The notes under the pieces were generated by a model. The model ran no database searches. It had not been told where the DNA came from and worked only from the letters and a program-made list of their open reading frames with translations. A program made the position numbers and the translations under genes. DNA of 64,000 nt from an uncultured Candidatus Poseidoniales archaeon (lineage in GTDB: Archaea > Thermoplasmatota > Poseidoniia > Poseidoniales > Poseidoniaceae), in contig CAJJCP010000028.1 in the NCBI GenBank assembly GCA_905182715.1, positions 12,592 to 76,591 of the forward strand, in the 5' to 3' direction. Shown piece after piece: positions 24,824 to 49,191 of the stretch; position 1 is the stretch's first letter; every line of letters begins with the position of its first letter.

Positions 24824-25516
24824 ATGACAATGCAAGTAGTCAATAGAGAAGGCGAGCGAGAGGATGTTCGTTTCGATGCGATACACGATAAACTCAAAAC
24901 ATTAACCTACGGTCTTGATCCAAATTGGATTGACCCAGGGCATGTTACCAAATTGACCATCGAAGGACTCTATGATGGAGTTACGACCCGTGAACTCGAT
25001 CAACTCGCTGCTGAAACCGCAGCTTCTCTCGCTTCTCAACATCCGGATTATAGCCGCCTTGCAGCACGAATTTGTGTTGATGACCTCCATCGCTCAACCA
25101 AGACCGTCTTCTCAGAAGTCATTACTGATTTGCGTGAATACATTGATCCTGAATCAGGGAAGCACGCACCGCTGATTTCTGAAGAAGTCTATTCAATCAT
25201 CATGGCGAATGCAGAGGTTCTGGATAACCATATTGATTACACTCGTGATCACAATTACGACTATTTCGGATTTAAAACTCTCGAACGTTCCTACTTACTA
25301 CGCTTGTATGGCGAAATTGCTGAGCGCCCACAACACATGTTGATGCGTGTTGCAGTTGGTATTCATCACTCCAATATCACGAAGGCCCTGGAAACATACG
25401 ATTTGATGAGTCAAGGCTACTTCACTCACGCAACACCTACTCTGTTTAACTCAGGGAACCCCAACACCTCAGATGTCATCGTGTTTCTTACTCACCATGC
25501 AAGACGATTCACTTGA
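24824..25516 (+). CDS. nrdA: Ribonucleotide reductase class Ia large subunit (R1), N-terminal fragment (ATP cone plus start of the catalytic domain). A +1 frameshift at about 25454-25457 interrupts it.
   Basis: [20 protein letters not shown] (ATP cone) ...[13 protein letters not shown]. The conserved continuation [13 protein letters not shown] is in the +1 frame. Confidence 0.9.
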
Positions 25517-34505: not shown

Positions 34506-37460
34506 ATGGTGAACAGAGTGTCCTCAACGCATGCAACTTCCGTCAACCGCCTTTTACCCGTCCTTTTGGTCATCTTGCTCATCGGCTCAATTCTTCCGAT
34601 GACAGCACCTTCTTCACCCTCGACGTCATTCGATTCTGTTCTCGAAGATGAACCGAGTGTATTGCCCGCAGGAAACGATTGCAATGCGTGCCAATCATAC
34701 GACCTGTATCTCGATGAAATGACCTCAGAGGCTGGCGGAGATGGTTCAATCACCACAGAGGAACCTTCAGGCTCTCACCAAGAAATGAGTGCGCTGGGTG
34801 GAATTCAATTCCGTAGTAATGAAATGATTTCCGATCTCGCAGTGTATGGCCGTGACAATACCGACAAAGTAACTTTGACTGTATTCATGCAATTCAAAGG
34901 TACGGAAGGTTCCACTGCTGATGTTACCTACTCTTTGGACTCTGGTGGCTCAGAAATTGATTCAGTCTCTGAAACTCGAGATGACCCTTGTACCAGCAAT
35001 GTCCTTGGAACAAGCAGTTGTCCCTGGGTGACCACTACAATTGATTTCGAAATACCTTCGAGTGGGTTCATGGTTGAAAACGGTGAGCAACTCGAGTTGA
35101 ACATCGATGCTCAGGCAACATGTGAGAGCAGCACCGGCGGAGTTGGTGGCGGCAGTTGTGAAGTGAATGTCGCTTTCGGCGATGTTGAAGATACTTCTGG
35201 AACTTCCAAACTCGAACTCAAAGCGAATGCTCTTGCAGACTCTTCTGTCCGAGTTCACCGCCCAGGAGCTAGTTTCCTTGACCAAGAAGTGACTGAATGG
35301 TCACCAAATCACCGCCCAGATTTCCGTACCATGCAATTCACTGTTGATGTTCGAAATGCTTTCGGTCGTGATGATATTCAAAACGTTGATTTGATTATGA
35401 GTACACCTAATGGTGCAAATTCTGAGTTCGATAAAACATTCGACGATGATGAACTTAAGTTGGATAATCAAGGATTGATTGGAAATTATACGTGGACGTA
35501 TGACTCTGGAATAAGTGCTGGAGATTATCCATTACGACTTGAAATCAGCGACGTCCAAGGCCATACACTTGTCTTTGAACATTCAGGAATCACTTTTATT
35601 GAGCATGACATCTACCTTTCTCTCCCTTCTTCTCAGCCAGATACTGTTCTGATTGCTCCAGGGCAAACGTCCAGTATTGAATTTTTGATAGAACATACTG
35701 GCTCTACCTCTTCATCAATGAATATCGTCTTTGATTTGGTAGGTTCACCTTTCCCTTCATCATGGTCTGACCCTATATGGGATCAAGCCGGTGGATATAC
35801 GCTCAATGGTGGAGGCACCTTTGCTCGCCCGATACTTTCCTTTGATGTGGTTGATGGTGATCTTACCAATGCTCCAAGCAGTATTGAAATCGAAGCCCGA
35901 GCATATGCAGATACTGAGAATGCCCAAAACGACCAAGTCGCGATTAAGACAATTGTTCTATCGATTGAAGAATCCGATGTCCTCGCGCCACCCCGTATTG
36001 CAGTCTTTGAAGACTTTGAACATCAAATACAAATTGCCGATTCAACTCGTGTTGATGCCTATGATGAGACACTTTCCCATTATGTTGATGCTGGTGATAC
36101 CAAAGGCGAATTCTTTGTTGATGTCTTTAATGCTGGATTTATTACCGATTCGTTCCGATTGCGGGTTACGGATTTACCCGACGCTTGGCAATTCAAATTC
36201 TTCGATAACGACACAGGGATGGAACTGACTGAAGAAGGAATTTATTCAACCACTCCTGACATTGGTTCAAATCAAATTCTCACTCTGCGCATGGAAATAT
36301 TCCCTCCAAATGAGCGCGATGCCCAAGATATTGGTTTGGTTGAGTTTTCAGTTTCCAGTACCGCCGATACCGAACTCAGCACACAAATAGCGTTCACAGT
36401 CCATCGAACCTTTGGTATCTTAGTGGAAGTCATAGCAGACTCTGACGGGGGGACACTCGGGACCGTTGGTCCAGTTTCACCAGGCTCAAGCATGTATTAC
36501 AATATGCGAATCACCGATTCAAGTGAAACACTTGGTCAAACGACATGGCGGATTAAAAATCCTGCTGAATTAGATCGAAACCTCGAAACTCCGGACGGTA
36601 ATCCCGACTATGGTACTTGGGATTATGATATCTCGAATGGGACCGAATCGAACATCGTTGTCGTCTATCTCGAAGCAGATGAGCACGTAGATATCAAGCT
36701 TGATTTGACTTTGCGTTCCAAGGTCGAGGCCGGATTCCATACGATTTATGTCCGTGTCATCGAAGAAGGCGTTGATTCTGAAGAGGCGCGATACTTCGAC
36801 TTACCAATTACTGTTGAAGTCCGAGATGATGTTCAACCAGGGCAACTTGAAATCACCGATGCGAGTACCGAAATTATCCGATTTGAATCGGATGAAGAAC
36901 GTAACATCAACTTCAAGATTGATAATCAAAACAACATACCTCTCGACGTGGTCATCACTTTGGAAGAACCCGATGGCTGGGATGGCTTGATTCGTGCATC
37001 CTCTGACCAAAACGGAGGAAGTTTCCTCCTGCTCACACTTCCTGCTTACTCGAGTAAAGATTTCTCAGTTGCAGTTACGCCACCTTCAAATTTGAAAGAC
37101 GGTGATGATGTGAAATTCACCCTTACAGTTACGCCGATGGATGAGGAAGTACCTTACGATAGTGAATTCACACAAATCATGTCGTTTTCATACCAAACTG
37201 AATGTTCTGGAATCGCATGTCTACTGAATGAGATTATGAATCCAGAACCTCAAACTTTCGCACTTGGAATTGGCCTGGCATTTGTTCTCATCTTTGCAGT
37301 ATATCGTCGTGGACAAAATGCTGGTGTTGGGAGCGAACCTCATCAAACTTGGGTCGACGAAGAGTTCGATTTCGGACTCGAAACAGTCGAACCAGTTGTG
37401 GAACCTGTTGTCGAAGAAGATGATGATTTGGAACTTTTAGATGAACTTGAAGATCTTTGA
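34506..37460 (+). CDS. Large secreted or cell-surface protein (984 aa) with an N-terminal signal/anchor and a C-terminal TM helix plus acidic tail
   Basis: N-terminal LLPVLLVILLIGSILPMTAPS; C-terminal FALGIGLAFVLIFAVYRRGQ followed by an acidic tail (EEDDDLELLDELEDL). Internal beta-rich segments have no enzymatic motifs. Confidence 0.6.
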   Translation: MVNRVSSTHATSVNRLLPVLLVILLIGSILPMTAPSSPSTSFDSVLEDEPSVLPAGNDCNACQSYDLYLDEMTSEAGGDGSITTEEPSGSHQEMSALGGIQFRSNEMISDLAVYGRDNTDKVTLTVFMQFKGTEGSTADVTYSLDSGGSEIDSVSETRDDPCTSNVLGTSSCPWVTTTIDFEIPSSGFMVENGEQLELNIDAQATCESSTGGVGGGSCEVNVAFGDVEDTSGTSKLELKANALADSSVRVHRPGASFLDQEVTEWSPNHRPDFRTMQFTVDVRNAFGRDDIQNVDLIMSTPNGANSEFDKTFDDDELKLDNQGLIGNYTWTYDSGISAGDYPLRLEISDVQGHTLVFEHSGITFIEHDIYLSLPSSQPDTVLIAPGQTSSIEFLIEHTGSTSSSMNIVFDLVGSPFPSSWSDPIWDQAGGYTLNGGGTFARPILSFDVVDGDLTNAPSSIEIEARAYADTENAQNDQVAIKTIVLSIEESDVLAPPRIAVFEDFEHQIQIADSTRVDAYDETLSHYVDAGDTKGEFFVDVFNAGFITDSFRLRVTDLPDAWQFKFFDNDTGMELTEEGIYSTTPDIGSNQILTLRMEIFPPNERDAQDIGLVEFSVSSTADTELSTQIAFTVHRTFGILVEVIADSDGGTLGTVGPVSPGSSMYYNMRITDSSETLGQTTWRIKNPAELDRNLETPDGNPDYGTWDYDISNGTESNIVVVYLEADEHVDIKLDLTLRSKVEAGFHTIYVRVIEEGVDSEEARYFDLPITVEVRDDVQPGQLEITDASTEIIRFESDEERNINFKIDNQNNIPLDVVITLEEPDGWDGLIRASSDQNGGSFLLLTLPAYSSKDFSVAVTPPSNLKDGDDVKFTLTVTPMDEEVPYDSEFTQIMSFSYQTECSGIACLLNEIMNPEPQTFALGIGLAFVLIFAVYRRGQNAGVGSEPHQTWVDEEFDFGLETVEPVVEPVVEEDDDLELLDELEDL

Positions 37461-37551: not shown

Positions 37552-40512
37552 TTGTATGAACATCGCACCATTTCCCTTATGAGGCATCAAACCAGCCCGT
37601 CAACAGTGAATCCAATGCGCACGACTGTTTCTCCCTCCGAGCCGCGCTTCCAATGGCAGATTCTTCAACATCGGAACGCCTTCAAATCGTTCTCCTTAGC
37701 GGCCTTGATGGTGCTCTCAACATTTGCTGCAATCCCGTATATTTCGATGGATGCCCTCGCCGCTTCTGACCAAGATGGAGATGGTTTGACCTATGGTTTG
37801 GAATACCTCATGAATACCGCTCCAAATGACCCTGATTCTGATAACGACGGTTTGCCTGATGGATGGGAATGGCAATACGGCCTCGATCCTCTTTCGAGTA
37901 ACGGCGGAGATGGCGCAGTTGGCGATCCTGATGGCGATGGGATGTCGAATCTACAAGAGTATTCATACTTACAACCCCAAAATTGGGACAGCTCCTCAAC
38001 ACCTGGAGTTCTTGACATGGGTGTTTGGTGGAACGGTACAGTTCCAGTTAACGATTGGAATGAAGAAGGCGCCCTACAATACAACAGACCTGGCTGCGGT
38101 GATAGTGGCTCAGATGGCGTTGGTAGCGTGATTCTTTGTGACGAAGACCCCGTAGGAAATATTTGCACGAATGGTTTCGATGATGATAAAGACGGCCTTG
38201 TTGATTCTGCTGACCCAGATAATGATGGGGATGCAGATTGTTCTTCCAATGATGATGATGGCGATGGTATTGCTGATGAAGACGTGGCCGGTTGGGATAC
38301 TGACGGCGACGGAATGGATGACGGTTGGGAGGCTGCAAACGGCCTCAATGCCACATCCGCTTCCAATGCAGACGGACCGAACGGCGACCCTGACGGTGAT
38401 GGCTTGACCAACCTCATGGAATATGTCAATCCTTCATGGACAACGATGTGTGGTACTTCTCCTTGTTTCCGTAATGGCCCAGATGGTGTTGTTACTGAAA
38501 CTATTTCACCTTGCGACCCTGTTTCTGGAATTGGACCAGGTGGCTGTGCAACCTCTACTGCCGAAGTTGATGGTATTACGAGCACAAACCCCCAACGCGC
38601 AGATACCGATGGTGACGGATTAAACGACTCCTATGAGGCATTGACGCTCTTGACAGATCCAACATCTGCCGATACAGACCGCGATGGAATCGATGACGGC
38701 GTTGAAGTCAACGGCGCATATGGTATCCCTCCTCAACCCAGCAATCCCCGTGACAACAACACCGACGGTGACGCCTTTGATGACGGTGAAGAAGATACCA
38801 ATTTCAACGGTGTTTTAGATGCAGGTGAAACCGACCCTACGCGAATGGAAGATTCAGGCGATGAAGACAATGATGGTATTCAGAATTGGGAAGAAAATCT
38901 TTCATGCACGACATGGGATATTGCCGATACCGATTTTGGTGGAATAAACGATGGTGATGAGCGCAATATTTCACACGGAACAGACCCTTGTGACTCGATC
39001 ATCAATTTTGATACGACCATCGTCACTTGGAATTCAGGTACCAGCCAACTTCAAGTTACAGATGGAACCGGATTCAATCCAAGTGGTGGTGTCGGATGGT
39101 ACAACACTTCTGGTACATGGATTCCTTTTGCTTATGTGAGTACGGTGAATAATGCCATACAAGGGGTATCAACCGCTCCAAATGCTGGTGTGACGCAAGT
39201 CGCAAACCGCAACGGTTCTTTCTGCCATACATCGGCAACAGCCGCAGGAACGATTGGTACAACTCAGCAATATTGTGACGATGATTATTCTGATTCCGAT
39301 GGTGATGGCCTTGCAGATTGGCAAGAGTTACTGGGAACCTTCGGTTGGTTTTCGAACCCAACACTCGCAGATACAGATGCTGATGGTGTGAGTGATTTTG
39401 ATGAAGTCTTTGACAACACCGATCCGAATCAGCCTTGTACGAATTTACTCGATGAGGATTTAGACGGCTTGAACAATTATTTTGAAACGACAACTGGTTG
39501 TGACCTTTCTTGGATTGGAATCCTCAACGGTTCAACAGATGTGTGGATTACTGATGATGTGACGGGTGATACCGATGCCGGAGGCGTTGGAGACCGTGAT
39601 GAATATTTTGATGGTACTAACCCGCAAAACGATCCGACCGATGACTTATTGCCTGCTGATTTTGATGGCGATGGTATTCCTGATGCTGTTGAAAACCAAA
39701 CAGGAACTGATTGGACCAACCCTGATACTGACGGTGGTGGAATGATTGATGGCCTTGAATGCCCTCAGGAATTCTGGATTATCGGTTGTCAAGGTTCGCC
39801 TTTCGACCCGTTTGATCCAACCGATGATTTGATTTCATCTGAAATTGTCTTTTGGGCAAACAACACCACAGGTGTTGTTGACATTGATTCAATACATCGA
39901 TGGCGCCAAACGACCAATGATTTCTACACCGGTACAACCTATGCTCATCTTGAAGCAGTCCATCCATACGAATCGATGGTTCTTCCTTATTCGAATCTGA
40001 CGCATCTTGCAGACCTTACCTTTTCAAACGAAACTCTGGATTGGATGATTACCTATCAGAATCCATTAAATTCGGGTAATCTTCCCGTCCCATATTCACT
40101 TTCGAACTTATCGTTCTTTGTGGACCTTGCAGGGGAATTACAACGTTCCAATGATACACATAACGTCAATGTGATTACTGGGCCGATTCAAGAAATCTTT
40201 GTTCAGCAACCAGAGTACTTTTTCGATTGGGCAACACTTGCATCAACAACAGTGCCAGGTATAAATTCGAGTTATAATTTGGTTTTGCCACCCACCTTCA
40301 GTGATCCATCACACCCTCACTCCTACCTCCTCAACGTTACGACTGCAGTCATTACTGAGGCTGGTGCGACCAATGCATATGACAGTGCTGCGGCTTTGCA
40401 AACCTTCCTGACTGAAGGAAATGCAACGACTGATTTCAAGCGTAACTACGACGGTTCTGGAATCCCTTCTTCCGAAGATTTGAGCGTGACCTTGGTACAA
40501 GCCACTGCGTGA
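37552..40512 (+). CDS. Giant surface protein, segment 1 of 3: signal peptide plus thrombospondin type-3-like Ca-binding repeats. It probably continues by frameshift into 40490..42127.
   Basis: Signal-like FSLAALMVLSTFAAIPYISMDALAAS, then many D-x-D-x-DG-x-x-D repeats (DSDNDGLPDGWE, DPDGDGMSNLQEY, DTDGDGLNDSYE and others). The frame-1 stop at 40510-40512 lies just upstream of the transglutaminase Cys motif encoded in frame 2. Confidence 0.7.
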   Translation: MYEHRTISLMRHQTSPSTVNPMRTTVSPSEPRFQWQILQHRNAFKSFSLAALMVLSTFAAIPYISMDALAASDQDGDGLTYGLEYLMNTAPNDPDSDNDGLPDGWEWQYGLDPLSSNGGDGAVGDPDGDGMSNLQEYSYLQPQNWDSSSTPGVLDMGVWWNGTVPVNDWNEEGALQYNRPGCGDSGSDGVGSVILCDEDPVGNICTNGFDDDKDGLVDSADPDNDGDADCSSNDDDGDGIADEDVAGWDTDGDGMDDGWEAANGLNATSASNADGPNGDPDGDGLTNLMEYVNPSWTTMCGTSPCFRNGPDGVVTETISPCDPVSGIGPGGCATSTAEVDGITSTNPQRADTDGDGLNDSYEALTLLTDPTSADTDRDGIDDGVEVNGAYGIPPQPSNPRDNNTDGDAFDDGEEDTNFNGVLDAGETDPTRMEDSGDEDNDGIQNWEENLSCTTWDIADTDFGGINDGDERNISHGTDPCDSIINFDTTIVTWNSGTSQLQVTDGTGFNPSGGVGWYNTSGTWIPFAYVSTVNNAIQGVSTAPNAGVTQVANRNGSFCHTSATAAGTIGTTQQYCDDDYSDSDGDGLADWQELLGTFGWFSNPTLADTDADGVSDFDEVFDNTDPNQPCTNLLDEDLDGLNNYFETTTGCDLSWIGILNGSTDVWITDDVTGDTDAGGVGDRDEYFDGTNPQNDPTDDLLPADFDGDGIPDAVENQTGTDWTNPDTDGGGMIDGLECPQEFWIIGCQGSPFDPFDPTDDLISSEIVFWANNTTGVVDIDSIHRWRQTTNDFYTGTTYAHLEAVHPYESMVLPYSNLTHLADLTFSNETLDWMITYQNPLNSGNLPVPYSLSNLSFFVDLAGELQRSNDTHNVNVITGPIQEIFVQQPEYFFDWATLASTTVPGINSSYNLVLPPTFSDPSHPHSYLLNVTTAVITEAGATNAYDSAAALQTFLTEGNATTDFKRNYDGSGIPSSEDLSVTLVQATA

Positions 40513-42127
40513 AGGGAGTTGTTCAGAATTCAACACAGCATTCGTCACTATGGCTCGTCTTGCTGGATTGCCTGCCCGAATGGTGACCGGTTTCTCTGGC
40601 GGTATTTGGAACGGTGATGGTTATTCTGTTTACCCAACACATTTGTCCACATGGGGTGAAGTTCGATTGCAACAAAACTCTGCGAGTGGCGACACTGAAC
40701 TTGGATGGATTGCATTCGATGCCTGCCCCGCTGCTGAAGAAGTTGAAATTGTGAATCAAACTATTTCCTCTTTCACCTTTGACCGAGATGGTACGGTCTT
40801 GCTCAACGTGTCCGGGCAATTGCGCTACAGCGAAAACTTGTCCTCCATTTCAGAACATTCACTTACCGGATATCTTGTCCCAATGGCCTTAGAAAATGAA
40901 ATTCCTGGTCAGGCTGCAGTTCCAAACTTTGAGTTTGGTTCAGACATTACGCTTGCTGATGGAACCTTTACTTTCAACGGAACTCCTCCTGAATTGGACG
41001 GGCCGGGTATGTATCGAGTGGTTGTCAAACTCCTTCAATCAGGCTATGTTGCTGAAGCAGGAGTGATTTTTGAAGGATACATTAACGTGACAGAAGATTC
41101 AGTTCTCAGTCACACTGCTCCAAATGCAATCAATGCTCCAATTGCTGGTGCCGGAGCTTTAACAGTCATTGAAGGTAGGCTTTCATTGGAAAATGCCCCT
41201 ACGAATAATATTGCAAACATTGGAGTCAATGATTTGACGCCACCATCGGTCTGGTTGACCTATACATCTTCCGTGACCGGTTTCACAAACTTGAGCAGTT
41301 TCATGAACATTGACGGTACTTGGAGTTTTGATTTGAATCTCGACCCACTTGAAACGAAGACAAATCTTTCTGCAATTCTTGGATTCTCTGGATGGCAAGA
41401 TACGCAAGCAACCGGTATTACTCCAACTCAATTCCATTTGCGTCCTTCGACCACTTCGATTGTAATTGATGTGCGTGATGCGCCAAACTTGACCGCAACT
41501 CTTGAAGGGCCACTTGCCAATAACAGCGTCCTTCTCATCGGCGATAACCTATGGGTAAACGGTACGACTCTCACGACTGGAGCATCACCTGTGCCAATGG
41601 CAGGTAATCTTTCGCTGTCAATTCGAGAAAACGAGACTTCACAGGATTGGACTCAAGTGTTTAACCAAAGTGTTAACGGAGCGTTTAGCATCCAACATTT
41701 ACTTTTGGCAGCAGATGCTCAAGTCATGGCTGGAATTCTCGAAATTCAGATACGCTTCTTCCCCAACGCTATCGAAGCAACCGATGACGCGAATGTGACT
41801 GCAGGTGGCCCTTACCTACTGCGTGGCACGCTCATTTTCGAAGTACAAGCGAGTGCCCAATTAAGGGGGACAGATGCTACTGTCTTAGTCAGTGCAATCG
41901 ATCATCGTGGTGTGAATACAGACCTTCTTCTCTCTGGTAATTTTGATTTCACCTTCAATGGAAACTGGGTCAACACAACCGTCGATCCGCAAACTGAAAC
42001 AATGACTATCAACTGGTTGATTGATTCAACCCTCTTTGCTGGTGATTATATTTCATCACAATTCCATCAATGGTTCCGATTTGTATCAACCATCAATCGG
42101 CATGAGTACGGTTCGTGTTGCTGCTGA
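40490..42127 (+). CDS. Giant surface protein, segment 2 of 3: transglutaminase-like core and following beta-rich region, in the +1 frame relative to segment 1
   Basis: REGSCFRFNTAFVTMARLAGLPARMVTGF (Cys motif G-x-C...FV..AR.AGLPAR.V.G), then ...PTHLSTWGEV (His) and ...IAFDACP (Asp), a complete TGase-like Cys-His-Asp triad. The Cys lies upstream of the ORF finder's ATG at 40550, and there is no start codon between the frame-2 stop (40487-40489) and the Cys. Confidence 0.65.
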   Translation, partial: PWYKPLREGSCSEFNTAFVTMARLAGLPARMVTGFSGGIWNGDGYSVYPTHLSTWGEVRLQQNSASGDTELGWIAFDACPAAEEVEIVNQTISSFTFDRDGTVLLNVSGQLRYSENLSSISEHSLTGYLVPMALENEIPGQAAVPNFEFGSDITLADGTFTFNGTPPELDGPGMYRVVVKLLQSGYVAEAGVIFEGYINVTEDSVLSHTAPNAINAPIAGAGALTVIEGRLSLENAPTNNIANIGVNDLTPPSVWLTYTSSVTGFTNLSSFMNIDGTWSFDLNLDPLETKTNLSAILGFSGWQDTQATGITPTQFHLRPSTTSIVIDVRDAPNLTATLEGPLANNSVLLIGDNLWVNGTTLTTGASPVPMAGNLSLSIRENETSQDWTQVFNQSVNGAFSIQHLLLAADAQVMAGILEIQIRFFPNAIEATDDANVTAGGPYLLRGTLIFEVQASAQLRGTDATVLVSAIDHRGVNTDLLLSGNFDFTFNGNWVNTTVDPQTETMTINWLIDSTLFAGDYISSQFHQWFRFVSTINRHEYGSCCC

Positions 42128-45100
42128 AGTGGCATGGAATTTGAGTCTCAGTCAAGATTGGACTCACTTGGGCAATTCGAGTTATCTGTTTGGAGATATC
42201 TTTGACGCGCAATATACCAATATGAGTGTGCTTGGTGACAACATCACCATGCTTTCAATTATCATGCTGACACCAGATGGTATGCCAATTGACCTTTCAC
42301 AGGGATTGTTAGACAATACGACCGGAAGTTTCCTCCTCAACTTCACCATTCCAATGACGAACCCTTCCGATTCATACGAATTCCTTCTGAATATGGACTT
42401 CGACTCAATGGCACCGGCTGGCGGAGCATATTTCCGATTTGTCGATTCAGCTGTTCCACCCGCCCCACCCTCGCTTCCTTCAACACTTGTTGGTATTGAA
42501 TCTGAATTTGTTGTTAAAACTGAACGGAGTTCATTAATTGTTGAAGCCAACCAAGCCATCGACTTTAATGCGACCATTACTGATGTTGCAGACCAATCCA
42601 ACGTATCCGGTGCCGTAGTCGAATACATCTTGGACTGGGGCAATACCAATGTTTCACTGGGTCTTGATACTTCAGATTCTGAAGGTAATTCAACCCTCCA
42701 ATGGACTGCAACAGGTATTGCACCAGGCTATTACGATGTATTGGTAATTGTTTATGACGATTTGACCGACGCTCTCGGTCAAGGCAATTCACGCCGAACT
42801 GGTAACTCCTCTCTCGTCAATTTGACTGTACAAGTCCCGAGTGTGATTCGTATCGACTCGATTCCAACTGTTACAACAGCTGGATTGAATTTCAACGTTC
42901 TTGGACAAGTTCTCGATGGAGATAACGCTGCACGACCTCTTACAACTCCAGTTGAAATGTCCGCATTTTGGTTAAATAATCCCGATGAACTGTTGGTTGG
43001 GGCTTACCTCACAACTTCGAATGGAACCTTCAACATGAGTATTCCAACTGATACTTCCGGTAACGGCACTGAGCGTGGAAACAAGATTTTAGTTTTGAGT
43101 GTGAATGAAGATTCTTCGCCTTTCTACCTTACTTCCACTTCGCAGAATGGAATGTTGGTCATGGGTGTGAGTCAGTTTAACAATCTCCAGCCGCTTAATC
43201 CAGTCACAGTGAACCGTGGAGATACCGTCAATATTACAGGACGTTTGATGGAATCCTCTAATCTCTTTGCACCATTATCTGGATTTGATGTCGATATTCA
43301 ATTCCATGAAACATGGTTGGCAGGCACCCAAACAGATGGAGAAGGATATGCAAACTTTAGCCATCAGATCCCTATGTCACATCCACTTGGATTGATTATT
43401 GTATCATTGGTATTCAATGGTTCTTCAGACTTGTTGAATACCCAAGTGAACCTTTCAACCATTACCATTCGCTCGACGACCATCATGGTGGTTGACCCTA
43501 TTGCAGCAAATCCCGTTGCAGGTACTTCCTTCAATGTCACTGGTCGCGTAGTCAGTGATAATGGAAGTGGACTTGAACAACGTGATGGAAGCGTTTTGCC
43601 TTCGAACATTTTGTTCAGCCTTAATGGTCTACCAACAGGGTTCTCAGTCACAGGTGGTTCAGTTACCACTGGCGGTATATGGTCAGCCAACATCCTTCTT
43701 GGAGAAGGCTTTGAGGCTGGAAACAATTCTCTCGAGGCATCCTTTATTCCAAACGTCAACTATTACATTGGTTCGACGGTTAACACCTCGTTTGATAGTC
43801 GAGGGTTTACTTCACTGATCTTCGTTCAACCTTCACTTGATGGCATTGGTTTGCCGTCTTTGAATGACCGTACAGAACGTGGCAACGATGTCCAAATTCA
43901 GGTGCTCTTGCGCGACAATACACAGTCCGCAGTAGCAGCGCAACAGGTCATTGTGACGCTTATCGGTACAGATGTAAGTATCATCCTCACGACCTTTGAA
44001 AACGGAACTGGAGTTGGTATACTTACTGTCCCAAGTAACCAAACGATTGGTTTTAATGATCTTGAAGTGACTTTTGCAGGAACTCCAGGAACAACTGGTT
44101 TGATAGGCTCAAATGCCTCTACTCAATTCGTAGTTCTTGCTCAGACCAATTTGGTGATTTCATCCTCGCCTTCGACGCTTGTTGCAGGTGACTCATTCAT
44201 CGTTCAAGGAATATTGCTGGATGACCTCAACCAAACCCTTGCAATCAATGGCAACTCATCACTTGCAATTGTCCACCTTCTTGTCGATGGAATCCCAGTT
44301 TCGAGTATTGAAACAGATGCATTGACTGGAAACTTTTCCATTGGATGGACATTGCCAGAGGATACCTCTGCAGGTTCACACTTGATTGAAGTTCGTTTCC
44401 TTGGTGGACGTGACTGGGTTGACCCTGTAGGAGTCGGTGACCCTGCGAACCCAGATTTCTATCTTCCAAGCAGTGCTCAAATCAATTTTAACGTAAGTGT
44501 CCCTACGAAAATTATTCTTTTGACACCAACCGGCACAGTGGATCGAGAAGCAACAATGACCCTTGAAGGCCGTTTGCTTGATTTGGTAGATGTACCTTTG
44601 ACGAACCTTACTGTTGAAGTCTGGCTTGATGGACAATGGATGACCAATGTGACGACCGATGATACTGGACTCTTTACAGCCGTTTACCCAGTACCTGCCG
44701 ATGCCAAACTTGGTCCGCTTTCGCTTGAAATACGTTTTACTGGTACAACATTCTATCTGCCGAGTAACGCAACTGGAACCTGGACAATATACAGTCCTAC
44801 ACTGGTCACGGTTTCGATGGAAAGCCCTGTTGCAGTCGGTCAGAACACGACCATTACCGGTACTGTTGTCGATAACCAACTGATTGGGGTTTCTGGCCAT
44901 ACAGTTCAACTTGAAGTCGAAGGTCTCATCATAGCGACCATTGTTACAGATTCTGAAGGCCAATTCACCTTTACTTGGAATGTTCCTGATACCTTTAGTT
45001 TCGGCGACCATCTCCTGTTTGCAAATGTCGATGCTCAAGGTTACTACCGCTCGAACACGGGTAATACTTCCTTTTTCTTAGCCCACCGTTCCGATGTGAC

Positions 45101-46547
45101 GCTTATCTTTGATGAAGGCAAAGATGTAACTCGGGGTAATTTCTGGGCACTTTCGGGTCGTTTGTTTGACATCGACACGGTCAACAACGACGGCTTGAGT
45201 GGAATGGAAATCAGCCTTCGCTTAGATGATGTCGAGATTGCAACCTTGGTTACAGAATCGGATGGTAGCTGGTCAACACTTGTTCCTGCGACATCCGATT
45301 TAACTCGTGGTAACCATATTTTCACCATCTTCTTTGAAGGAACTGAAGCCCATCTTGGAACCGAAGCAACCGGTACTGCTACTGTATGGGCCAATGCAAA
45401 AATCACTATTGATGCAACCTCTGCCAATATTGTGGTACGTTCCGATTCCACCTTTGCACCGATTATACTGACTGGTTCAGTCTCTGAAATCGGCGGACTT
45501 GGTGAAGTGTTTGACAATGTCACACTGTATCTTGGTAACGGCTCACAATGTTTGGCTCAAAAAGACGGTGCACGTTGCTTAGAAAACCTCCTCATTGATT
45601 GGTCGAATGGAAACTTCTCTCTCACGACGACTGCACCTTCTTTCCTTAGTGCTGGAGCGCAATACCTGCATCTTGAAACACCTCGACAAGACGTACATTA
45701 CCTCAACTCGGCAAGTGTGAGTCACTTGATATTCGTCAAGATCAATGCGGATATCCTCGTTTCACTCGATGATGTCATCGAAGATAAACAAGAAGACATC
45801 GGTGGAAGCATTCTCATCACTGCACAAGACACTCAACAGGGCGTTGATGGGATTACAGTGACAATCTATCTCTATACCGAGAATGGGACGCAACTTTCCA
45901 CTCCACTGCAACCTCTTACCGATGCAGATGGTGTTGCAGAGTTTGATTTCAATTCAGACCCTCCTTTTGGCGATACAGATTCTTGGGGCGAATTATACTT
46001 GGAGATTCTTATCAATGACCCTCGTCTCTCAGAACAAACACTCTCTGATTTTGCTTTGCAGTCTGGTGAAGAATTTGCTCCTTCGTATGAATACCAAGAA
46101 GCAGCAACTGAAGTTCCTACATGGGTATACATCCTCACACTTCTCATCTTAGGGTTGGCAGGTGCAGGCACCGTACTTTACCGTCGCCGTAAGTCTTCGG
46201 AATTGATGGAAGAAGCCGCTGAAATCTTTGCCTATACTGCTGAGTTGTTGGCTGCGGGTGATTCCATCCGTGAATCGATCTTCACCTGTTATCAGAGTCT
46301 CTGTGCCACTTTCCAAGAACATGGATTCCTACGCCGTGATTTCGAAACAGTTCGTGAATTCGAGATGGCTATTCGTCAAGCAATGCCTCAAATCTCTGAT
46401 GAAGCGTTACTAGCTCTTGACAACATGTTTGAGCAAGCACGTTACAGTCGTGAGGAAATGGGACAGCAGCATCAAGAAGCAGCTCAACTTGCTTTGGAAC
46501 GAATGGGTCAAGAAATCTCAACACTGAAAGCGATTCCTGCACGTTGA
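42021..46547 (+). CDS. Giant surface protein, segment 3 of 3: more than 12 Ig-like/CarboxypepD_reg-like repeats, a TM helix and a cytoplasmic DUF4129-like tail. It is again in the +1 frame relative to segment 2, with the join at about 42060-42115.
   Basis: Repeating units of about 95 aa (for example TGTVVDNQLIGVSGHTVQLEVEGLIIATIVTDSEGQFTFTWNVPDTFSFGDHLLFANVDAQGYYRSNTGNTSFF). TM helix WVYILTLLILGLAGAGTVLY. The tail ...CYQSLCATFQEHGFLRRDFETVREFEMAIRQ...LALDNMFEQARYSREE resembles DUF4129, which typically follows TGase-like membrane proteins. Confidence 0.7.
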   Translation: MIQPSLLVIIFHHNSINGSDLYQPSIGMSTVRVAAEVAWNLSLSQDWTHLGNSSYLFGDIFDAQYTNMSVLGDNITMLSIIMLTPDGMPIDLSQGLLDNTTGSFLLNFTIPMTNPSDSYEFLLNMDFDSMAPAGGAYFRFVDSAVPPAPPSLPSTLVGIESEFVVKTERSSLIVEANQAIDFNATITDVADQSNVSGAVVEYILDWGNTNVSLGLDTSDSEGNSTLQWTATGIAPGYYDVLVIVYDDLTDALGQGNSRRTGNSSLVNLTVQVPSVIRIDSIPTVTTAGLNFNVLGQVLDGDNAARPLTTPVEMSAFWLNNPDELLVGAYLTTSNGTFNMSIPTDTSGNGTERGNKILVLSVNEDSSPFYLTSTSQNGMLVMGVSQFNNLQPLNPVTVNRGDTVNITGRLMESSNLFAPLSGFDVDIQFHETWLAGTQTDGEGYANFSHQIPMSHPLGLIIVSLVFNGSSDLLNTQVNLSTITIRSTTIMVVDPIAANPVAGTSFNVTGRVVSDNGSGLEQRDGSVLPSNILFSLNGLPTGFSVTGGSVTTGGIWSANILLGEGFEAGNNSLEASFIPNVNYYIGSTVNTSFDSRGFTSLIFVQPSLDGIGLPSLNDRTERGNDVQIQVLLRDNTQSAVAAQQVIVTLIGTDVSIILTTFENGTGVGILTVPSNQTIGFNDLEVTFAGTPGTTGLIGSNASTQFVVLAQTNLVISSSPSTLVAGDSFIVQGILLDDLNQTLAINGNSSLAIVHLLVDGIPVSSIETDALTGNFSIGWTLPEDTSAGSHLIEVRFLGGRDWVDPVGVGDPANPDFYLPSSAQINFNVSVPTKIILLTPTGTVDREATMTLEGRLLDLVDVPLTNLTVEVWLDGQWMTNVTTDDTGLFTAVYPVPADAKLGPLSLEIRFTGTTFYLPSNATGTWTIYSPTLVTVSMESPVAVGQNTTITGTVVDNQLIGVSGHTVQLEVEGLIIATIVTDSEGQFTFTWNVPDTFSFGDHLLFANVDAQGYYRSNTGNTSFFLAHRSDVTLIFDEGKDVTRGNFWALSGRLFDIDTVNNDGLSGMEISLRLDDVEIATLVTESDGSWSTLVPATSDLTRGNHIFTIFFEGTEAHLGTEATGTATVWANAKITIDATSANIVVRSDSTFAPIILTGSVSEIGGLGEVFDNVTLYLGNGSQCLAQKDGARCLENLLIDWSNGNFSLTTTAPSFLSAGAQYLHLETPRQDVHYLNSASVSHLIFVKINADILVSLDDVIEDKQEDIGGSILITAQDTQQGVDGITVTIYLYTENGTQLSTPLQPLTDADGVAEFDFNSDPPFGDTDSWGELYLEILINDPRLSEQTLSDFALQSGEEFAPSYEYQEAATEVPTWVYILTLLILGLAGAGTVLYRRRKSSELMEEAAEIFAYTAELLAAGDSIRESIFTCYQSLCATFQEHGFLRRDFETVREFEMAIRQAMPQISDEALLALDNMFEQARYSREEMGQQHQEAAQLALERMGQEISTLKAIPAR

Positions 46548-46553: not shown

Positions 46554-47054
46554 TCACCAGCGAAGGTGAAGTCGACCATTGAGGAAATGGGCACTGATTT
46601 CACTCGCTTCAGCCGGTAATGGGAGAATGCGTAGCAGGTCGTCATGGCCAGCTTCTTTTACGATAATGCGTAATTGGCGTTGAGTTTCATCTTGGAGAGT
46701 AGAAACTTCGATGTCGGAATTGTTTGCTCCATGCAGTGGTATCATGAGCCCATCCGGGTTCACAGTTCCGTGCAATTGGTCAACCATCCAAGCCAAACGT
46801 CGCTCAGGTTCGATTTCAGCGAGATGGGTTTCTGGAATCATTCCTGATGCAGTGAGGACGCGTTGATGGTTCATTTGGACTTCAGATAAATGTCCGGCTT
46901 GAATATGGAATTCCGCATGGAGTTGTTGAGGTTCTGCTTCAAGTCCCAATGTCTTTCTATCCATCGTTTTTTCAGTGACTTCATCGGAACTTTCTGTTTC
47001 CAAGTGAACTGTTTCCCATGTCGACATGGTGTATCGGTTGTGTGCGGCCTCCAT
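46554..47054 (-). CDS. Hsp20/alpha-crystallin-like small heat-shock protein (putative)
   Basis: The C-terminal LRILPLPAEASEISAHFLNGRLHL fits the LP...V....A.F.NGVL.I signature of alpha-crystallin domains; the N-terminal part is divergent. Start chosen downstream of the XPD stop. Confidence 0.4.
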   Translation of the reverse strand: MEAAHNRYTMSTWETVHLETESSDEVTEKTMDRKTLGLEAEPQQLHAEFHIQAGHLSEVQMNHQRVLTASGMIPETHLAEIEPERRLAWMVDQLHGTVNPDGLMIPLHGANNSDIEVSTLQDETQRQLRIIVKEAGHDDLLRILPLPAEASEISAHFLNGRLHLRW

Positions 47055-47085
47055 GAACCTTCGTCCTCCAACATTTGTATTCCGT

Positions 47086-49191
47086 TCACACTTCTTCAAT
47101 GGTGTGGACTTTTGAAAAGAAGCGACGAGCAAAGCTCGCGGTCGTTTGTGGGTCATTGGTGGAATTCATTCTCAAATCGCTTGGATAACAACTGATGTAG
47201 TTTCGGTCGGTATGTCGCTGATCGAGAAGGAGAATCAATGCTCGGTCACCAACCGAACGTATTGGGCGCCCCATTGCTTGTAAAATCGCATTAATTGCAG
47301 GTTGTGTTACGGTATAACGCCAAGCGTTATTTTTCCCAAACCGGTCTCCCGCATAGGCTTTGAGTGAATCTGAGAGGACGGACGGAGGTGGATTCGGAAT
47401 CCCTATACAAGCTACAGCGTCTAAGATGCCTCCATTGTAGTCGATTCCCTCTGACAGCCGTGCTCCATGAACCCCACACAGCAAGATACGTTGACCAGAT
47501 TCTTTCTCGCTACGGAGCGTTTCAACAATTGAATCTATGTCGTTTTTTGTCCAGTCTCTACTTTCCACAACTTTTCGAATACCTTTGAAGTTGGTTTCGG
47601 AAAGGATCTCTTCCATCATTCGGTATGAAGGTGAAAAAACCGCAATATGTCCGGGGGTTCCATCGATGAGTGCTTGGATATGGTTTCGAATCTTTGCCCA
47701 CATCATCGGTGTTCGCTGACTGTACTTGGTGGTGACATCACCTGCAACTAAAACGGGTCGGCGTTCTCCAGCAAATGGGGATGTATACGCTGTTTTGGTA
47801 GTTTTTCCAGCAGGGAGGTCAAGCATATCCGCATACATTTGAGGGGGATACAATGTTCCCGACATCAATATGGCTCCATGTATGGATGAAAATACAGGGC
47901 CAGACACAAGTCCGGGGTCCAAGAGATGTGAAGTGATTGTCCCATCCTTGCCTTTTTTTGAACTGAATACCAGGCTCAAGGCGGTTGTTTCTCCAAATGT
48001 CTCGATGCATTTTAGAATATGTCCCATTCGATGAGAATCCGGTTCCATTGCATCTTCATCATCTCCTGCTTCCAAATCAATTTCAACTCGGAGGAGAAGG
48101 TCGGAAAGACGGGGTAACCTATGACTTCGTTCTACAGACAAGTCTGCCAAGTCCGGATTGTCAGTCAATGTCTTTTGACCAGTCAATCCTTCATATTCGT
48201 CGCATGAACGGTGAAGAATCTCTAAGAATCTGGACACCTCAACACGTGATTCATTGGAGTCATTCGGTAGATCCGAGTGGAGTTGCCGGAACAAATCAGC
48301 AATTTTTGTTCGAGCAATTTTCATAATTTCAAATGCCCATGTGGCTACATCGAGTTCCAATGCACTTGATACTGAATTCGATTTGAGGTAATGTGCAGTG
48401 AGTGTACCCACATATTCTTCCAATTCCATCGTTGCGTTTCGAGACATGAGGGGCGTGATGATTTTCTCCATCGTCATTCGAATCCTATTTGGTAGGTTGT
48501 GCGCTTCATCGACAACAACAATAATGTCTTCAAGAGCGACTCCCATGGCTTCTAAACTTGATTTGCGAACACCTTCATCAAAGATGTGATTGTAATCTCC
48601 TACGAATATATCCGCATGGCCTGCTGCTTCTCTCGCAGCCTTCCAAGGGCAGGTTTGGGTAATTTCTCCTCCAACTCGGTGAATTTTAGTTAAATCGACT
48701 AATTCATCAACGTGGAGTGGACTGTCAAGAATTCTCTTTGTTAATCCCGGAGCACTGGTAATCCACGGGCGGCACGATTTTGTCTTTCGAGCAGTACTGC
48801 ACATCATGGAGAAAACAAGTGAGGATTCCTTTGCAAAGGGCTGAACACACATTCCCGATTGACCAATCATATCGACCAATGTGATTGGGTCTTTGCCAAC
48901 ACGAATTTGATTTATTCTGCGAACCGTGTCAACAACGATTCGATGTTGGCTCTGGCGAGATGTAAGGAAGAATACATGTTTCTTGTTTGGAGAATTCTGG
49001 GTGATCTCAAGAGCAGCCGCTAATGCAGCAGCCGTCTTTCCGATACCAGTCGGTGCAGCCGCTAAATGATAACCGCCGCTTCGAAGAGCTTCTGTAGACT
49101 CTTGAATCATCTCGATTTGACCGGGGCGGGGCTTTTCATGAGCCAAATAGGAAAACACATGTTCCTTTCCTTGACTCCCCTCCACTGTCAT
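47086..49191 (-). CDS. XPD/Rad3-family ATP-dependent DNA helicase (DinG-like)
   Basis: FSYLAHEKPRPGQIEMI...AAPTGIGKTAAAL (motif I), a 4-Cys FeS-domain region (C...C..C...C), DEAH-like VVVDEAHNL, and C-terminal helicase motifs V/VI. Confidence 0.8.
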   Translation of the reverse strand: MTVEGSQGKEHVFSYLAHEKPRPGQIEMIQESTEALRSGGYHLAAAPTGIGKTAAALAAALEITQNSPNKKHVFFLTSRQSQHRIVVDTVRRINQIRVGKDPITLVDMIGQSGMCVQPFAKESSLVFSMMCSTARKTKSCRPWITSAPGLTKRILDSPLHVDELVDLTKIHRVGGEITQTCPWKAAREAAGHADIFVGDYNHIFDEGVRKSSLEAMGVALEDIIVVVDEAHNLPNRIRMTMEKIITPLMSRNATMELEEYVGTLTAHYLKSNSVSSALELDVATWAFEIMKIARTKIADLFRQLHSDLPNDSNESRVEVSRFLEILHRSCDEYEGLTGQKTLTDNPDLADLSVERSHRLPRLSDLLLRVEIDLEAGDDEDAMEPDSHRMGHILKCIETFGETTALSLVFSSKKGKDGTITSHLLDPGLVSGPVFSSIHGAILMSGTLYPPQMYADMLDLPAGKTTKTAYTSPFAGERRPVLVAGDVTTKYSQRTPMMWAKIRNHIQALIDGTPGHIAVFSPSYRMMEEILSETNFKGIRKVVESRDWTKNDIDSIVETLRSEKESGQRILLCGVHGARLSEGIDYNGGILDAVACIGIPNPPPSVLSDSLKAYAGDRFGKNNAWRYTVTQPAINAILQAMGRPIRSVGDRALILLLDQRHTDRNYISCYPSDLRMNSTNDPQTTASFARRFFSKVHTIEEV

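Follow-up and report, generated by a model that had tools for sequence, protein, structure and literature searches.

Three consecutive plus-strand open reading frames (ORFs) in the 64,000-nucleotide stretch of Poseidoniales DNA under analysis (the window) constitute a single gene, which codes for a 2976-aa cell-surface protein. The two +1 breaks that divide this gene are judged, from comparison with close relatives, to be single-base insertion errors of sequencing or consensus that are private to this assembled sequence. Taken together with the domain organisation, residue conservation and synteny described below, these results suggest that the intact product is probably a type-I membrane glycoprotein, that its transglutaminase-fold module is non-enzymatic, and that it forms an envelope or adhesion pair with the protein encoded immediately upstream. 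Amongst the archaea in the plankton of the surface ocean, Marine Group II, to which the DNA belongs, is the most abundant group; to our knowledge it has no cultured representatives, for which reason the biology of its cell envelope and of its attachment is uncharacterised.

The ORFs concerned (37552..40512, 986 aa; 40550..42127, 525 aa; 42021..46547, 1508 aa) occupy frames 0, 1 and 2 respectively. Taking out two nucleotides gave a CDS of 8931 nt with zero internal stops, the product of which aligned without gaps to the orthologue of a related MAG (L012) at 97.6% identity over 2976 aa, a result that upheld the proposal of the sequence-only reading that one gene of around 3000 aa had been split over three ORFs. 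The start was placed at the ATG at 37615, which corresponds to M22 of the listed first ORF and is the Met at which three homologues (P0006, P0021 and P0023) also begin. In tblastn the matches fell in frames 1, 2 and 3, and homologues from other Poseidoniales crossed both junctions within a single HSP, a continuity that is far beyond chance. Frame 1 is open from 40490, with PWYKPLREGSCSEFNTAFVTMARLAGLPARMV encoded ahead of the first in-frame ATG/GTG/TTG (40550); the initial observation that a Cys motif lies between the stop of the first ORF and the ATG of the second, with no intervening start codon, was thereby confirmed in frame 1, save that three of its letters had been misread, the sequence being CSEF and not CFRF.

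Table 1. Features of the giant surface-protein gene and of its upstream neighbour, in window positions.
Feature	Position	Strand	Remarks
Upstream 984-aa type-I membrane protein	34506..37460	+	N-terminal signal, C-terminal transmembrane helix, acidic tail
Surface-protein CDS	37615..46547	+	2976 aa once the surplus bases (~40505, ~42054) are dropped
N-terminal hydrophobic segment, aa 24-43, FSLAALMVLSTFAAIPYI	37684..37743	+	Read off the sequence; follows a basic n-region
Acidic TSP3-repeat region, aa ~50-737 (~690 aa)	37762..39825	+	TSP3_bac, motif and composition counts
TgpA-like ectodomain, aa 738-1060	39826..40795	+	N-terminal beta-sandwich plus transglutaminase-fold core
Junction 1	40503..40509	+	A single surplus base, best assigned to 40505 (GCCA[C]TGCG); frame 0 to frame 1
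Cys969 codon, nucleophile position	40520..40522	+	Invariant in 13/13 and 80/80 sequences
Ser1011 codon, canonical catalytic His position	40646..40648	+	Two residues before an invariant Trp
Asp1035-Ala-Cys1037	40718..40726	+	Canonical Asp, then a family-specific Cys replacing the canonical Thr
Divergent Ig/macroglobulin-like beta-sandwich array, aa ~1061-2830 (~1770 aa)	40796..46106	+	~17-18 domains
Junction 2	42048..42061	+	Net +1 base within a garbled ~20-nt patch; frame 1 to frame 2
Single transmembrane helix, aa 2835-2857	46119..46187	+	Hydropathy scan, threshold 1.8; no other segment flagged
Cytoplasmic helical tail with DUF4129	46188..46544	+	Pfam match 46287-46496; four helices modelled

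Both shifts are +1, each corresponding to one surplus base in the window. Junction 1 interrupts Transglut_core six codons upstream of the Cys; once its extra base was taken out, the Pfam match, previously confined to profile positions 50-108, covered 9-108. Two relatives (L012 and L014) read GCCA-TGCG at this point, without the extra base, and an otherwise identical 49-nt context that also lacks it is present in a TARA scaffold; the context inclusive of the extra base was found nowhere among the sequences searched, and GTDB genomes scanned for an exact copy of the junction-1 context yielded no match. At junction 2, where the net gain of one base was established relative to L001-L010 and L012, relatives read GDYVFDISFNGS and homologues are continuous. 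The two frameshifts, which are not a property of the gene, are absent from the TARA contig and from all 12 close relatives (near-identical public contigs with an uninterrupted frame): ten contigs with an identical upstream protein each carry one ORF of 2945 aa, and L012 carries one of 2976 aa. At least 2909 codons are open in 60 of the 63 species-level Poseidoniales (GTDB) loci with complete frames, and junction 1 is read through in a single frame at 80/80 species loci.

Private 1-nt insertions in the same window also break the genes for ribonucleotide reductase (RNR) and dihydrolipoamide dehydrogenase (lpdA) and a small RHH gene, the relatives again being without them, and, besides those at 40505 and ~42054, extra bases occur at 25453, 28064, 49782 and 49856; none of the eight private insertions falls within the 10.4-kb block for which identity to the abundant population is 99.9%. 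It is because the frameshifts are absent in relatives, and because equivalent insertions occur in other genes of the window, that they are judged to be errors. It is very improbable that they are real mutations, such that the gene is a recent pseudogene in this strain or is made as three polypeptides, since the RNR large subunit, lpdA and the RHH gene would then also need to be pseudogenes within the same 30 kb, and the insertions are missing from every relative as well as from the TARA contig of identical context. The sequence as given does carry both insertions, loss or variation of surface-protein genes is common, and shortened frames were recorded in 3 of 63 other Poseidoniales genomes, where they may be errors too; however, the gene exhibits no other decay, being free of stops and gaps over its whole length once the two nucleotides are removed, and like fragmentation is evident in the error-rich long-read contigs of two relatives (L011 and L013).

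The common direction (+1) of the two shifts in one gene could be read as a sign of programmed ribosomal frameshifting, or of a phase-variable switch, controlling expression of the giant protein. This interpretation was rejected as having practically no likelihood: the sites are not conserved (0/12 close relatives, plus the single-frame loci at junction 1), the same +1 insertions hit unrelated housekeeping genes in the window, no shift motif is shared between the two sites, of which the contexts (GCCA[C]TGCG and the garbled TATATTTCATCAC patch) have nothing in common, and there is no homopolymer or simple repeat at either junction.

A mosaic pattern of identity was also recorded across the window, with a breakpoint at approximately 40,320-40,360; this is near junction 1 but not coincident with it, and no claim is therefore made that the join created the frameshift. 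Given this mosaicism and the broken RNR, lpdA and RHH genes, any other 'split gene' or 'pseudogene' calls made from this sequence deserve distrust.

Analysis of the corrected protein substantiated the proposed order of TSP3 repeats, transglutaminase-like core, Ig-like array, transmembrane helix and DUF4129, with TSP3_bac, Transglut_core and DUF4129 all scoring above their Pfam cutoffs, and its assignment as a surface protein was likewise supported. The N-terminal hydrophobic segment is a putative signal peptide or signal anchor. The succeeding TSP3 region, predicted to be Ca-binding, contains the D-x-D-x-D-G motif 15 times and has 16 Cys, with Asp+Glu making up 20% of its residues; it matched TSP3_bac (PF18884) in five stretches (30.1-30.3 bits; Pfam cutoff 25), and is 80-90% identical across 15 species. 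Every extracellular region has an even count of Cys residues, namely 16, 2 and 2.

The last 400 aa of the beta-sandwich array modelled as four all-beta domains (pLDDT 85-95), and fold matches to the array comprised tandem MG domains (A2ML1, C3 and TEP1), adhesin extender repeats (6xi3 and 6xi1) and titin. Searches of the array for CarboxypepD_reg and SdrD_B returned sub-threshold Pfam matches only, and a BLAST self-comparison gave no off-diagonal matches indicative of recent internal duplication. N-X-S/T sequons number 54 in the array against 23 expected, and 74 in the whole protein against 35.4±5.2 expected, with none in the tail. The transmembrane helix, a segment that the structure model renders as helical starting with its residue 436, is followed by YRRRK, consistent with a positive-inside topology. 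Beyond it, DUF4129 scored 25.8-25.9 bits (cutoff 24.8), and it is in the tail that stretches of invariant residues are longest, as judged over 21 sequences. A PDB sequence search with this tail gave nothing meaningful, and NCBIfam returned for the giant protein far-sub-threshold, TSP3-driven matches to CglD and MtsD only.

The corrected sequence matched Transglut_core (PF01841) with 49.6 bits (cutoff 23) over positions 9-108 of the 108 in the profile, as compared with 41.1 bits for the second ORF alone. A profile search gave the TgpA structure 6g49 as top match (E 3.9e-8), and the same structure was the best fold match of an AF2 model of the module (E 1.1e-8, TM 0.48/0.58), a model of moderate confidence in which the mean pLDDT is 66 and the loop preceding the His site falls below 50. 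Top fold matches comprised TgpA, 3isr, TglA, FXIII, TG2 and TG3. In the model Cys969 opens helix 232-245, so placing the nucleophile position at a helix N-terminus.

The Cys-His-Asp triad anticipated from the sequence nevertheless proved to be incomplete: Cys and Asp are kept, and His is missing in 80/80 orthologues. The position of Ser1011 aligns with the His of the TgpA 'DAHAWVE' motif, and distant relatives read AHQWAEV; among 80 genomes the residues recorded there were T33/A25/S19/G2/N1, with His in 0/80, and no alternative conserved His was found near the active site. At the Asp-Ala-Cys site, 80/80 Poseidoniaceae-type loci share the D, the C and the P without exception, the Asp1035 position being D/E/N among more distant orthologues. 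Loss of the one residue and gain of the other are coupled, in that every domain with a Cys two residues after the Asp is without the His, and in every domain with the His that second position is Thr or a gap. Cys969 and Cys1037 are the sole Cys residues in the module, and a disulfide between them is proposed.

With the catalytic His absent from the transglutaminase-like domain, the module is probably a binding or structural unit and not a Cys-His-Asp enzyme, and the protein cross-linking role suggested for it initially is not supported. The invariant Cys could still act as a nucleophile with another base, and on that account the protein would work outside the cell as an active cysteine enzyme, be it a transglutaminase, a protease or an amidase, crosslinking or trimming envelope or substrate proteins, catalysis being performed by Cys969, Asp1035 and a non-canonical general base. 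Invariance of both residues in 80/80 genomes is in keeping with this, as are the Ca2+-binding repeats, which go together with a Ca2+-dependent enzyme class, and a fold and closest relative, TgpA, that is transglutaminase-active in vitro. An enzyme of this kind is nonetheless unlikely: the His is replaced by T/A/S/G/N throughout with no conserved substitute nearby, its loss is so perfectly tied to the second active-site Cys that a disulfide fits better, and related giant proteins commonly have degenerate cores in which the Cys is changed to Ser or Ala.

Orthologues of ~2950-3050 aa, one per genome and at the same chromosomal position, occur throughout the Poseidoniales (Marine Group II), in MAGs of both families, Poseidoniaceae and Thalassarchaeaceae. 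At NCBI they are named 'DUF4129 domain-containing transglutaminase family protein' or 'transglutaminase domain-containing protein'; the combination of domains, first thought unusual, is of a TgpA type (transglutaminase core, transmembrane helix, DUF4129) that already bears a name, and the family, although uncharacterised, is an annotated one of the TgpA kind and not a new system. As the catalytic His is absent family-wide, the automatic label 'transglutaminase' is probably misleading. No paper linking transglutaminase with Marine Group II or Poseidoniales, or DUF4129 with transglutaminase, was found in the library searched. Neighbouring genes include a 2-oxoacid dehydrogenase operon, lipoyl synthase, SDR, XPD helicase and GDH. 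A MoxR/DUF58-type operon context is typical of bacterial TgpA-like genes; genes of this type number none in the window.

Wherever the DNA reached far enough upstream (56 loci), a homologue of the upstream 984-aa protein was present directly 5' of the giant gene and on its strand (56/56), which makes plausible the earlier suggestion that this anchored protein is a partner. The two genes are a core, single-copy and strictly syntenic pair across Marine Group II. The upstream protein, with a mean column identity of 69% over 14 species, had no family or PDB match above threshold, profile search included, and the giant protein exhibited no homology either to it or to the other large TSP3-like ORF (52815-57011).

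Judged from these sequence features, the giant protein and its partner most likely have a role in surface adhesion or in the envelope. In the mechanism proposed, the signal sequence would be removed or kept as an anchor, and the C-terminal transmembrane helix would hold the protein in the membrane with its highly conserved, helical DUF4129 tail in the cytoplasm. The ~17-18 beta-sandwich domains would serve as a stalk, some 60-70 nm in length if extended, that carries at its distal end the TgpA-like transglutaminase-fold module and the ~690-aa acidic Ca2+-binding TSP3 head. Within the module, in which Cys and Asp are retained, the catalytic His is gone and the second residue beyond the Asp has become an invariant Cys, the putative disulfide would be in accord with a binding or structural unit. 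Together the giant and upstream proteins may then form a conserved cell-envelope or adhesion module, which the cytoplasmic tail would tether to an intracellular partner.

For a gene that is universal, single-copy and syntenic, a housekeeping role in the envelope is no less fitting than adhesion. It is conceivable, at a clearly lower likelihood than the broader reading, that the protein is mainly a structural component, such as an S-layer-like canopy or anchor paired with the upstream protein, and not an adhesin for particles or cells. Archaeal S-layer glycoproteins are rich in glycosylation sequons, and the strong sequon enrichment recorded here, the constant, single-copy location amid housekeeping genes in every genome examined and the very conserved cytoplasmic tail are all compatible with such a component; TgpA, moreover, is required for viability in P. 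aeruginosa (PMC3507681). Set against this, NCBIfam and PDB searches gave no similarity to known S-layer proteins, the long Ig-like extender with its distal Ca-binding head resembles giant adhesins, and Poseidoniales TSP3 genes have been interpreted as adhesion genes (PMC6461757).

A more specific and decidedly speculative proposal is that of a universal two-gene Poseidoniales envelope module in which the triad of a TgpA-type enzyme domain has been rebuilt into a Cys...Asp-x-Cys pair. Located at the far end of a glycosylated stalk of ~60 nm, the pair would serve as a switch of redox or disulfide type or for covalent capture, and the almost invariant DUF4129 tail would link what happens at the surface (attachment, Ca2+ or redox state) with a partner inside the cell. 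If true, this would be the first mechanistic role in archaea for DUF4129 and the TgpA family. The coupled His loss and Cys gain, together with the near-invariant cytoplasmic tail, provide concrete and testable hypotheses.

Amongst known systems, the database orthologues (for instance the 2976-aa ORF of GCA_028123415.1, JAOHUH010000006.1, and the orthologue in the MG-II genome CM001443.1) represent the same gene, with the same synteny and length class, the one stated difference being the two spurious bases in the window. TgpA of Pseudomonas aeruginosa (PA2873; PDB 6G49/6G4H), the best sequence and fold match for aa 738-1100, is a protein of 668-688 aa with five N-terminal transmembrane helices (DUF3488) and an intact Cys-His-Asp triad, for which transglutaminase activity has been measured in vitro and which is needed for viability of the organism (Milani et al. 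2012, PMC3507681). The likeness includes the N-terminal 'YWR' beta domain, the nucleophile Cys and GxPAR motif common to both, and the succession of extracytoplasmic transglutaminase-fold module, transmembrane helix and cytoplasmic C-terminal DUF4129-type tail. By way of contrast, the giant protein has no DUF3488 match (Pfam), one N-terminal hydrophobic segment and one C-terminal transmembrane helix, ~690 aa of TSP3 before the module and ~1770 aa of beta-sandwich domains between module and membrane, and it has lost the His and gained an extra Cys.

Binding or structural use of an inactive transglutaminase fold with an incomplete triad is known from erythrocyte protein 4.2, in which it is the Cys that is missing; the present family keeps the Cys and is without the His, and no close relationship between the two is detectable. 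Thrombospondin-type-3 genes of Poseidoniales, amongst which the giant gene likewise codes for a TSP3-bearing surface protein, have been read as adhesion candidates in a study that scored thrombospondin gene presence only and gave no description of the giant gene, of the TgpA-like module in its product or of the partner protein (Rinke et al. 2019, PMC6461757). The giant Ca2+-dependent bacterial adhesins (6XI3 and 6XI1; large adhesion protein and RTX adhesin repeats) resemble the giant protein in their tandem beta-sandwich array (fold match E 7.6e-13, TM 0.32/0.42), acidic Ca-binding repeats and distal region of ligand-binding type. However, those adhesins deploy type I secretion, outer-membrane anchoring and near-identical repeats, whereas the archaeal protein combines highly divergent domains with a C-terminal transmembrane anchor and a cytoplasmic domain.

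Frame 1 of the ORF2 region was found to be open from 40490, with its first possible start codon at 40550 and a further encoded stretch (...PLREGSCSEFNTAFVTMARLAGLPARMV...) ahead of that start. It was here, between the stop of ORF1 and the start of ORF2 and with no start codon, that the sequence-only reading had placed a cysteine motif, a location that held, although three letters required correction (CSEF, not CFRF). A protein search with a query spanning both junctions returned Poseidoniales and Thermoplasmatota proteins titled "transglutaminase domain-containing protein", many homologues crossing junction 1, junction 2 or both within a single HSP, and local alignments revealed exactly one surplus base in the window at each junction (junction 1 reading ...LVQA|xREGSC, and junction 2 ...GDY, six residues, NGS). 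Removal of these two bases, with translation from ATG 37615, the Met at which the homologous database proteins P0006, P0021 and P0023 start, gave an 8931-nt CDS with zero stops, the 2976-aa product of which aligned with zero gaps to its orthologues on the public contigs L012 (97.6% identity) and L003 (95.6% identity). With a stop-free corrected CDS, gapless orthologue alignments and homologues spanning the junctions, positions 37615-46547 are, on this sequence evidence, one gene, as had been proposed for the three same-strand ORFs.

Coordinates of the giant gene, its product and other features of the window (aa, residues of the corrected product)
Feature	Position	Strand	Remark
Upstream 984-aa ORF	34506-37460	+	ORF listing
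ORF1	37552-40512	+	frame 0; ORF listing
ORF2	40550-42127	+	frame 1; ORF listing
ORF3	42021-46547	+	frame 2; ORF listing
Junction 1 surplus base	40505	+	window GCCA[C]TGCG, relatives GCCA-TGCG; nucleotide alignment
Junction 2 surplus base	42048-42061	+	inside locally garbled patch; nucleotide alignment
N-terminal hydrophobic signal segment	aa 24-43		
Acidic region	aa ~50-737		15 D-x-D-x-D-G motifs, 16 Cys; TSP3_bac over threshold
TgpA-like module	aa 738-1060		
Cys969	40520-40522	+	conserved Cys
Ser1011	40646-40648	+	His site
Asp1035 and Cys1037	40718-40726	+	Asp, then Cys at Asp+2
Beta-rich sequence	between module and TM helix		~1770 aa
Single TM helix	aa 2835-2857		followed by YRRRK
119-aa tail matching DUF4129	C-terminus; 46188-46544	+	
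RNR large subunit, two ORFs	24824-25516 and 25473-27218	+	ATP-cone plus lgN, then lgC; private inserted base ~25453
lpdA, two overlapping ORFs	28046-28780 and 27349-28164	-	private inserted base at 28064
RHH-like gene, 124 aa	49537-49910	-	spread across three frames; insertions at 49782 and 49856
Small conserved ORF	46554-47156	-	157-166 aa long in relatives; matches no family
Second large ORF	52815-57011	-	1398 aa

The two +1 frameshifts, first noted from the sequence, proved to be confined to the window. The upstream 984-aa protein recurs unchanged in 44 blocks of the public collection, and in all 10 of the contigs from these blocks in which the downstream gene was inspected (L001-L010, comprising independent metagenome assemblies and MAG GCA_041439875.1) the giant gene was a single uninterrupted ORF, of 2945 aa in nine of them and of 2833 aa in L004, where the contig end cuts it. 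Contig L012 (GCA_028123415.1), which carries the window's exact XPD helicase, likewise encoded a single 2976-aa ORF. Exact-pattern scans of genome and metagenome collections, conducted with the 49-nt context of junction 1 with or without the extra base, detected the version with that base in neither collection, the one match in the metagenome collection being a TARA scaffold without it. Among GTDB species representatives, a scan seeded with a profile identified 268 genomes that encode a relative; in the best 80 of these the transglutaminase module was continuous, and among the same 80 a stop-to-stop frame of at least 2909 codons was present in 60 of the 63 loci with both ends visible.

Equivalent damage was evident elsewhere in the window. 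The genes for dihydrolipoamide dehydrogenase (lpdA) and the large subunit of ribonucleotide reductase (RNR), intact in relatives at 476 aa and 797-802 aa respectively, were each shown by tblastn to be split by a +1 shift from one private inserted base, and the spacer adjoining the RHH-like gene held two further private insertions (49988 and 50067). Over ~30 kb of compared sequence the private single-base insertions totalled eight, with no net deletions, and the sites exhibited neither a common motif nor simple repeats. Because they are private, recur as the same damage in other genes and lack any such motif or repeat, we conclude from the sequence comparisons that the insertions are probably sequence or consensus errors. 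Compared with such error, both alternatives for the twice-broken giant gene are poor: that it is a real pseudogene appears improbable, and that it is decoded by programmed shifting scarcely credible. The long-read, Pilon-polished contigs L011 and L013 (ENA ERZ28548085 and ERZ28548095, *_pilon contigs of Poseidoniales), in which the orthologous gene lies in about eight pieces, show how it breaks up in error-prone assemblies; many neighbouring genes (LipA, SDR, XPD, GDH) are also in short ORFs there, with pervasive indel error in both assemblies.

Across 24500-54100 the window exhibited a mosaic of identity. A 10.4-kb block (29.9-40.3 kb), which contains none of the eight private insertions, was 99.9% identical to a widespread population (L001-L010 and L023), including five proteins that were 100% identical, and identity to these contigs was 89-94% in its flanks. 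Beyond about 40,350 the window matched the L012/L014 type, the crossover (~40,320-40,360) lying within the giant gene, a pattern that would reflect recombination of lineages at ~90% ANI or, alternatively, an assembly chimeric between strains.

Pfam searches of the separate ORFs located TSP3_bac in ORF1, DUF4129 at the end of ORF3 and, at the very beginning of the extended ORF2, positions 50-108 of the Transglut_core profile. With the corrected sequence all three families were recovered, and the Transglut_core match grew to profile positions 9-108 (49.6 bits), indicating that junction 1 cuts through the domain. The layout envisaged from sequence was upheld for its transglutaminase, TSP3, TM and DUF4129 elements. 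The Ig-like region yielded nothing over the Pfam threshold (CarboxypepD_reg and SdrD_B were sub-threshold), and that array is backed by the predicted fold of its last part. The C-terminal 577 aa were modelled with AF2 (pLDDT 79) as four beta-sandwich domains, themselves at pLDDT 85-95, followed by the TM helix and a tail of four helices. The fold matches of this model were tandem macroglobulin domains (A2ML1, C3, TEP1), giant-adhesin extender repeats (6xi3, 6xi1) and titin Ig arrays; at ~100 aa per domain the array would hold roughly 17-18 such domains, which the absence of internal repeats by BLAST suggests are old and divergent. N-X-S/T sequons were strongly over-represented (74 observed against 35.4±5.2 expected, the highest of 1000 shuffles being 51), clustering in the TgpA-like module and the array with zero in the tail, a distribution that together with the positive-inside rule points to a type-I membrane protein whose ectodomain is glycosylated and whose DUF4129 tail lies in the cytoplasm.

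The only PDB relative detected by sequence was TgpA, the transglutaminase-fold membrane protein of Pseudomonas aeruginosa (6g49; E 0.018 from one sequence alone, and 3.9e-8 when a profile of 13 sequences was used). Its periplasmic domain was also the top fold match (E 1.1e-8, TM 0.48/0.58) of an AF2 model of aa 738-1100 (mean pLDDT 66, core 70-92), followed by a Cytophaga putative cysteine protease, TglA and animal transglutaminases. By profile and predicted fold the giant protein is thus a member of the transglutaminase-like superfamily. However, the Cys-His-Asp triad sought through such a model was incomplete, Cys and Asp being present and His missing in alignments: the 13-sequence alignment contained seven invariant core residues (Cys232, Trp276, Glu278, Gly293, Trp294, Cys300 and Pro301) and no conserved His around the core, and in the profile alignment the catalytic His of the TgpA motif DAHAWVE faced a Ser/Thr/Ala column. 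A profile search of 1.84 billion representatives yielded 22,918 relatives, the full-length orthologues being 2701-3088 aa with the module at about residues 735-1095. Local realignment of the core in the best 150 of these relatives distinguished more distant giant proteins with a canonical C ... AHQWAEV ... [D/E]-x-T arrangement from Poseidoniales orthologues in which the Cys is followed by a residue other than His, by D/E/N and lastly by Cys-Pro; in every domain among the 150, Cys at Asp+2 was accompanied by absence of the His, and the His by Thr or a gap at Asp+2. The distant proteins include P0083-P0103, representative-library matches 1.4-3.3 kaa long that contain 3-4 cores in tandem bearing AHQWAEV; contigs of 2.3-3.2 Mb carry some of them, and in several the first copies have Ser/Ala in place of the Cys.

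In the best 80 of the 268 species genomes the nucleophile Cys, the Asp and the Cys-Pro were each present in 80/80, and the His site was occupied by Thr (33), Ala (25), Ser (19), Gly (2) or Asn (1). On these alignments the giant protein is not a canonical Cys-His-Asp enzyme, and the earlier suggestion of protein cross-linking by a transglutaminase fails on a defining feature, the triad being incomplete family-wide. An unconventional enzyme that retains the Cys and Asp seems unlikely. Since Cys969 and Cys1037 are the only Cys of the module, and Cys counts are even in every extracellular region (16, 2, 2), we infer that a Cys969-Cys1037 disulfide may fill the former active site. In animal transglutaminases the Thr at Asp+2 forms part of the wall of the active-site tunnel, beside the Cys, which would make this geometry plausible, as a lead rather than a test.

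The window covers part of a Poseidoniales chromosome occupied by housekeeping genes (CPSase, Lys-tRNA and Arg-tRNA synthetases, aRF1, RNR, a 2-oxoacid dehydrogenase operon, lipoyl synthase, XPD helicase and GDH), and neither MoxR nor DUF58 genes were detected in it. The upstream 984-aa protein, previously suggested as a partner of the giant protein, is a plausible one, a homologue lying directly upstream on the same strand in 56/56 loci with enough DNA. It carries a signal sequence and, at its C-terminus, a TM helix, contains four Cys pairs and has an acidic tail; it is well conserved, at 69% mean column identity across 14 species, and matched no Pfam family over threshold, NCBIfam family or PDB entry. 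In every relative inspected, the small ORF sits between the XPD helicase gene and the giant gene, convergent to the latter. The second large ORF, which gave a weak TSP_3 match and had no resemblance to the giant protein by BLAST, may encode another surface protein. Contig L075 (NZEQ01000074.1), titled 'Verrucomicrobiales bacterium ARS100', carries the Poseidoniales gene pair in full synteny and is probably mis-binned.

The giant-protein family is present in both Poseidoniaceae and Thalassarchaeaceae and already bears the automatic annotation "DUF4129 domain-containing transglutaminase family protein"; the literature searched contained no study of it. Identity across 15 species was 80-90% in the TSP3 head, 58-73% in the TgpA-like module, 61-78% in the beta-sandwich array and 79% over the last 76 residues. 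In alignment A2 of the relatives, the longest invariant runs (F.YTAELLAAGD..RE.IF.CY ... LRRDFE.VRE.E.AIRQA ... D..FE.ARY.RE) lie in the DUF4129 tail, implying a conserved intracellular partner.

These features suggest a protein anchored at its C-terminus, with an N-glycosylated stalk of ~17-18 beta-sandwich domains that, from typical Ig-domain dimensions, would reach ~60-70 nm if extended, and at its tip a TSP3 head that binds Ca2+, together with a module derived from TgpA that is probably non-catalytic. The invariant cytoplasmic tail would engage an intracellular partner, and the giant protein and co-located 984-aa membrane protein would constitute a conserved envelope or adhesion module. 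Poseidoniales thrombospondin genes have been taken as adhesion genes by Rinke et al. (PMC6461757); the universal, syntenic, single-copy pattern of the gene pair speaks just as much for a housekeeping role in the envelope.

Among known proteins the closest is TgpA, which the giant protein resembles in fold, in the Cys/GxPAR motif and in ending with a TM helix plus DUF4129. Unlike TgpA it is archaeal, has no DUF3488 polytopic N-terminus, has gained TSP3 and Ig-like regions, and has an extra Cys and no catalytic His. The frameshifts are not a real feature of the giant gene. Its product is a variant within the known TgpA kind of protein.
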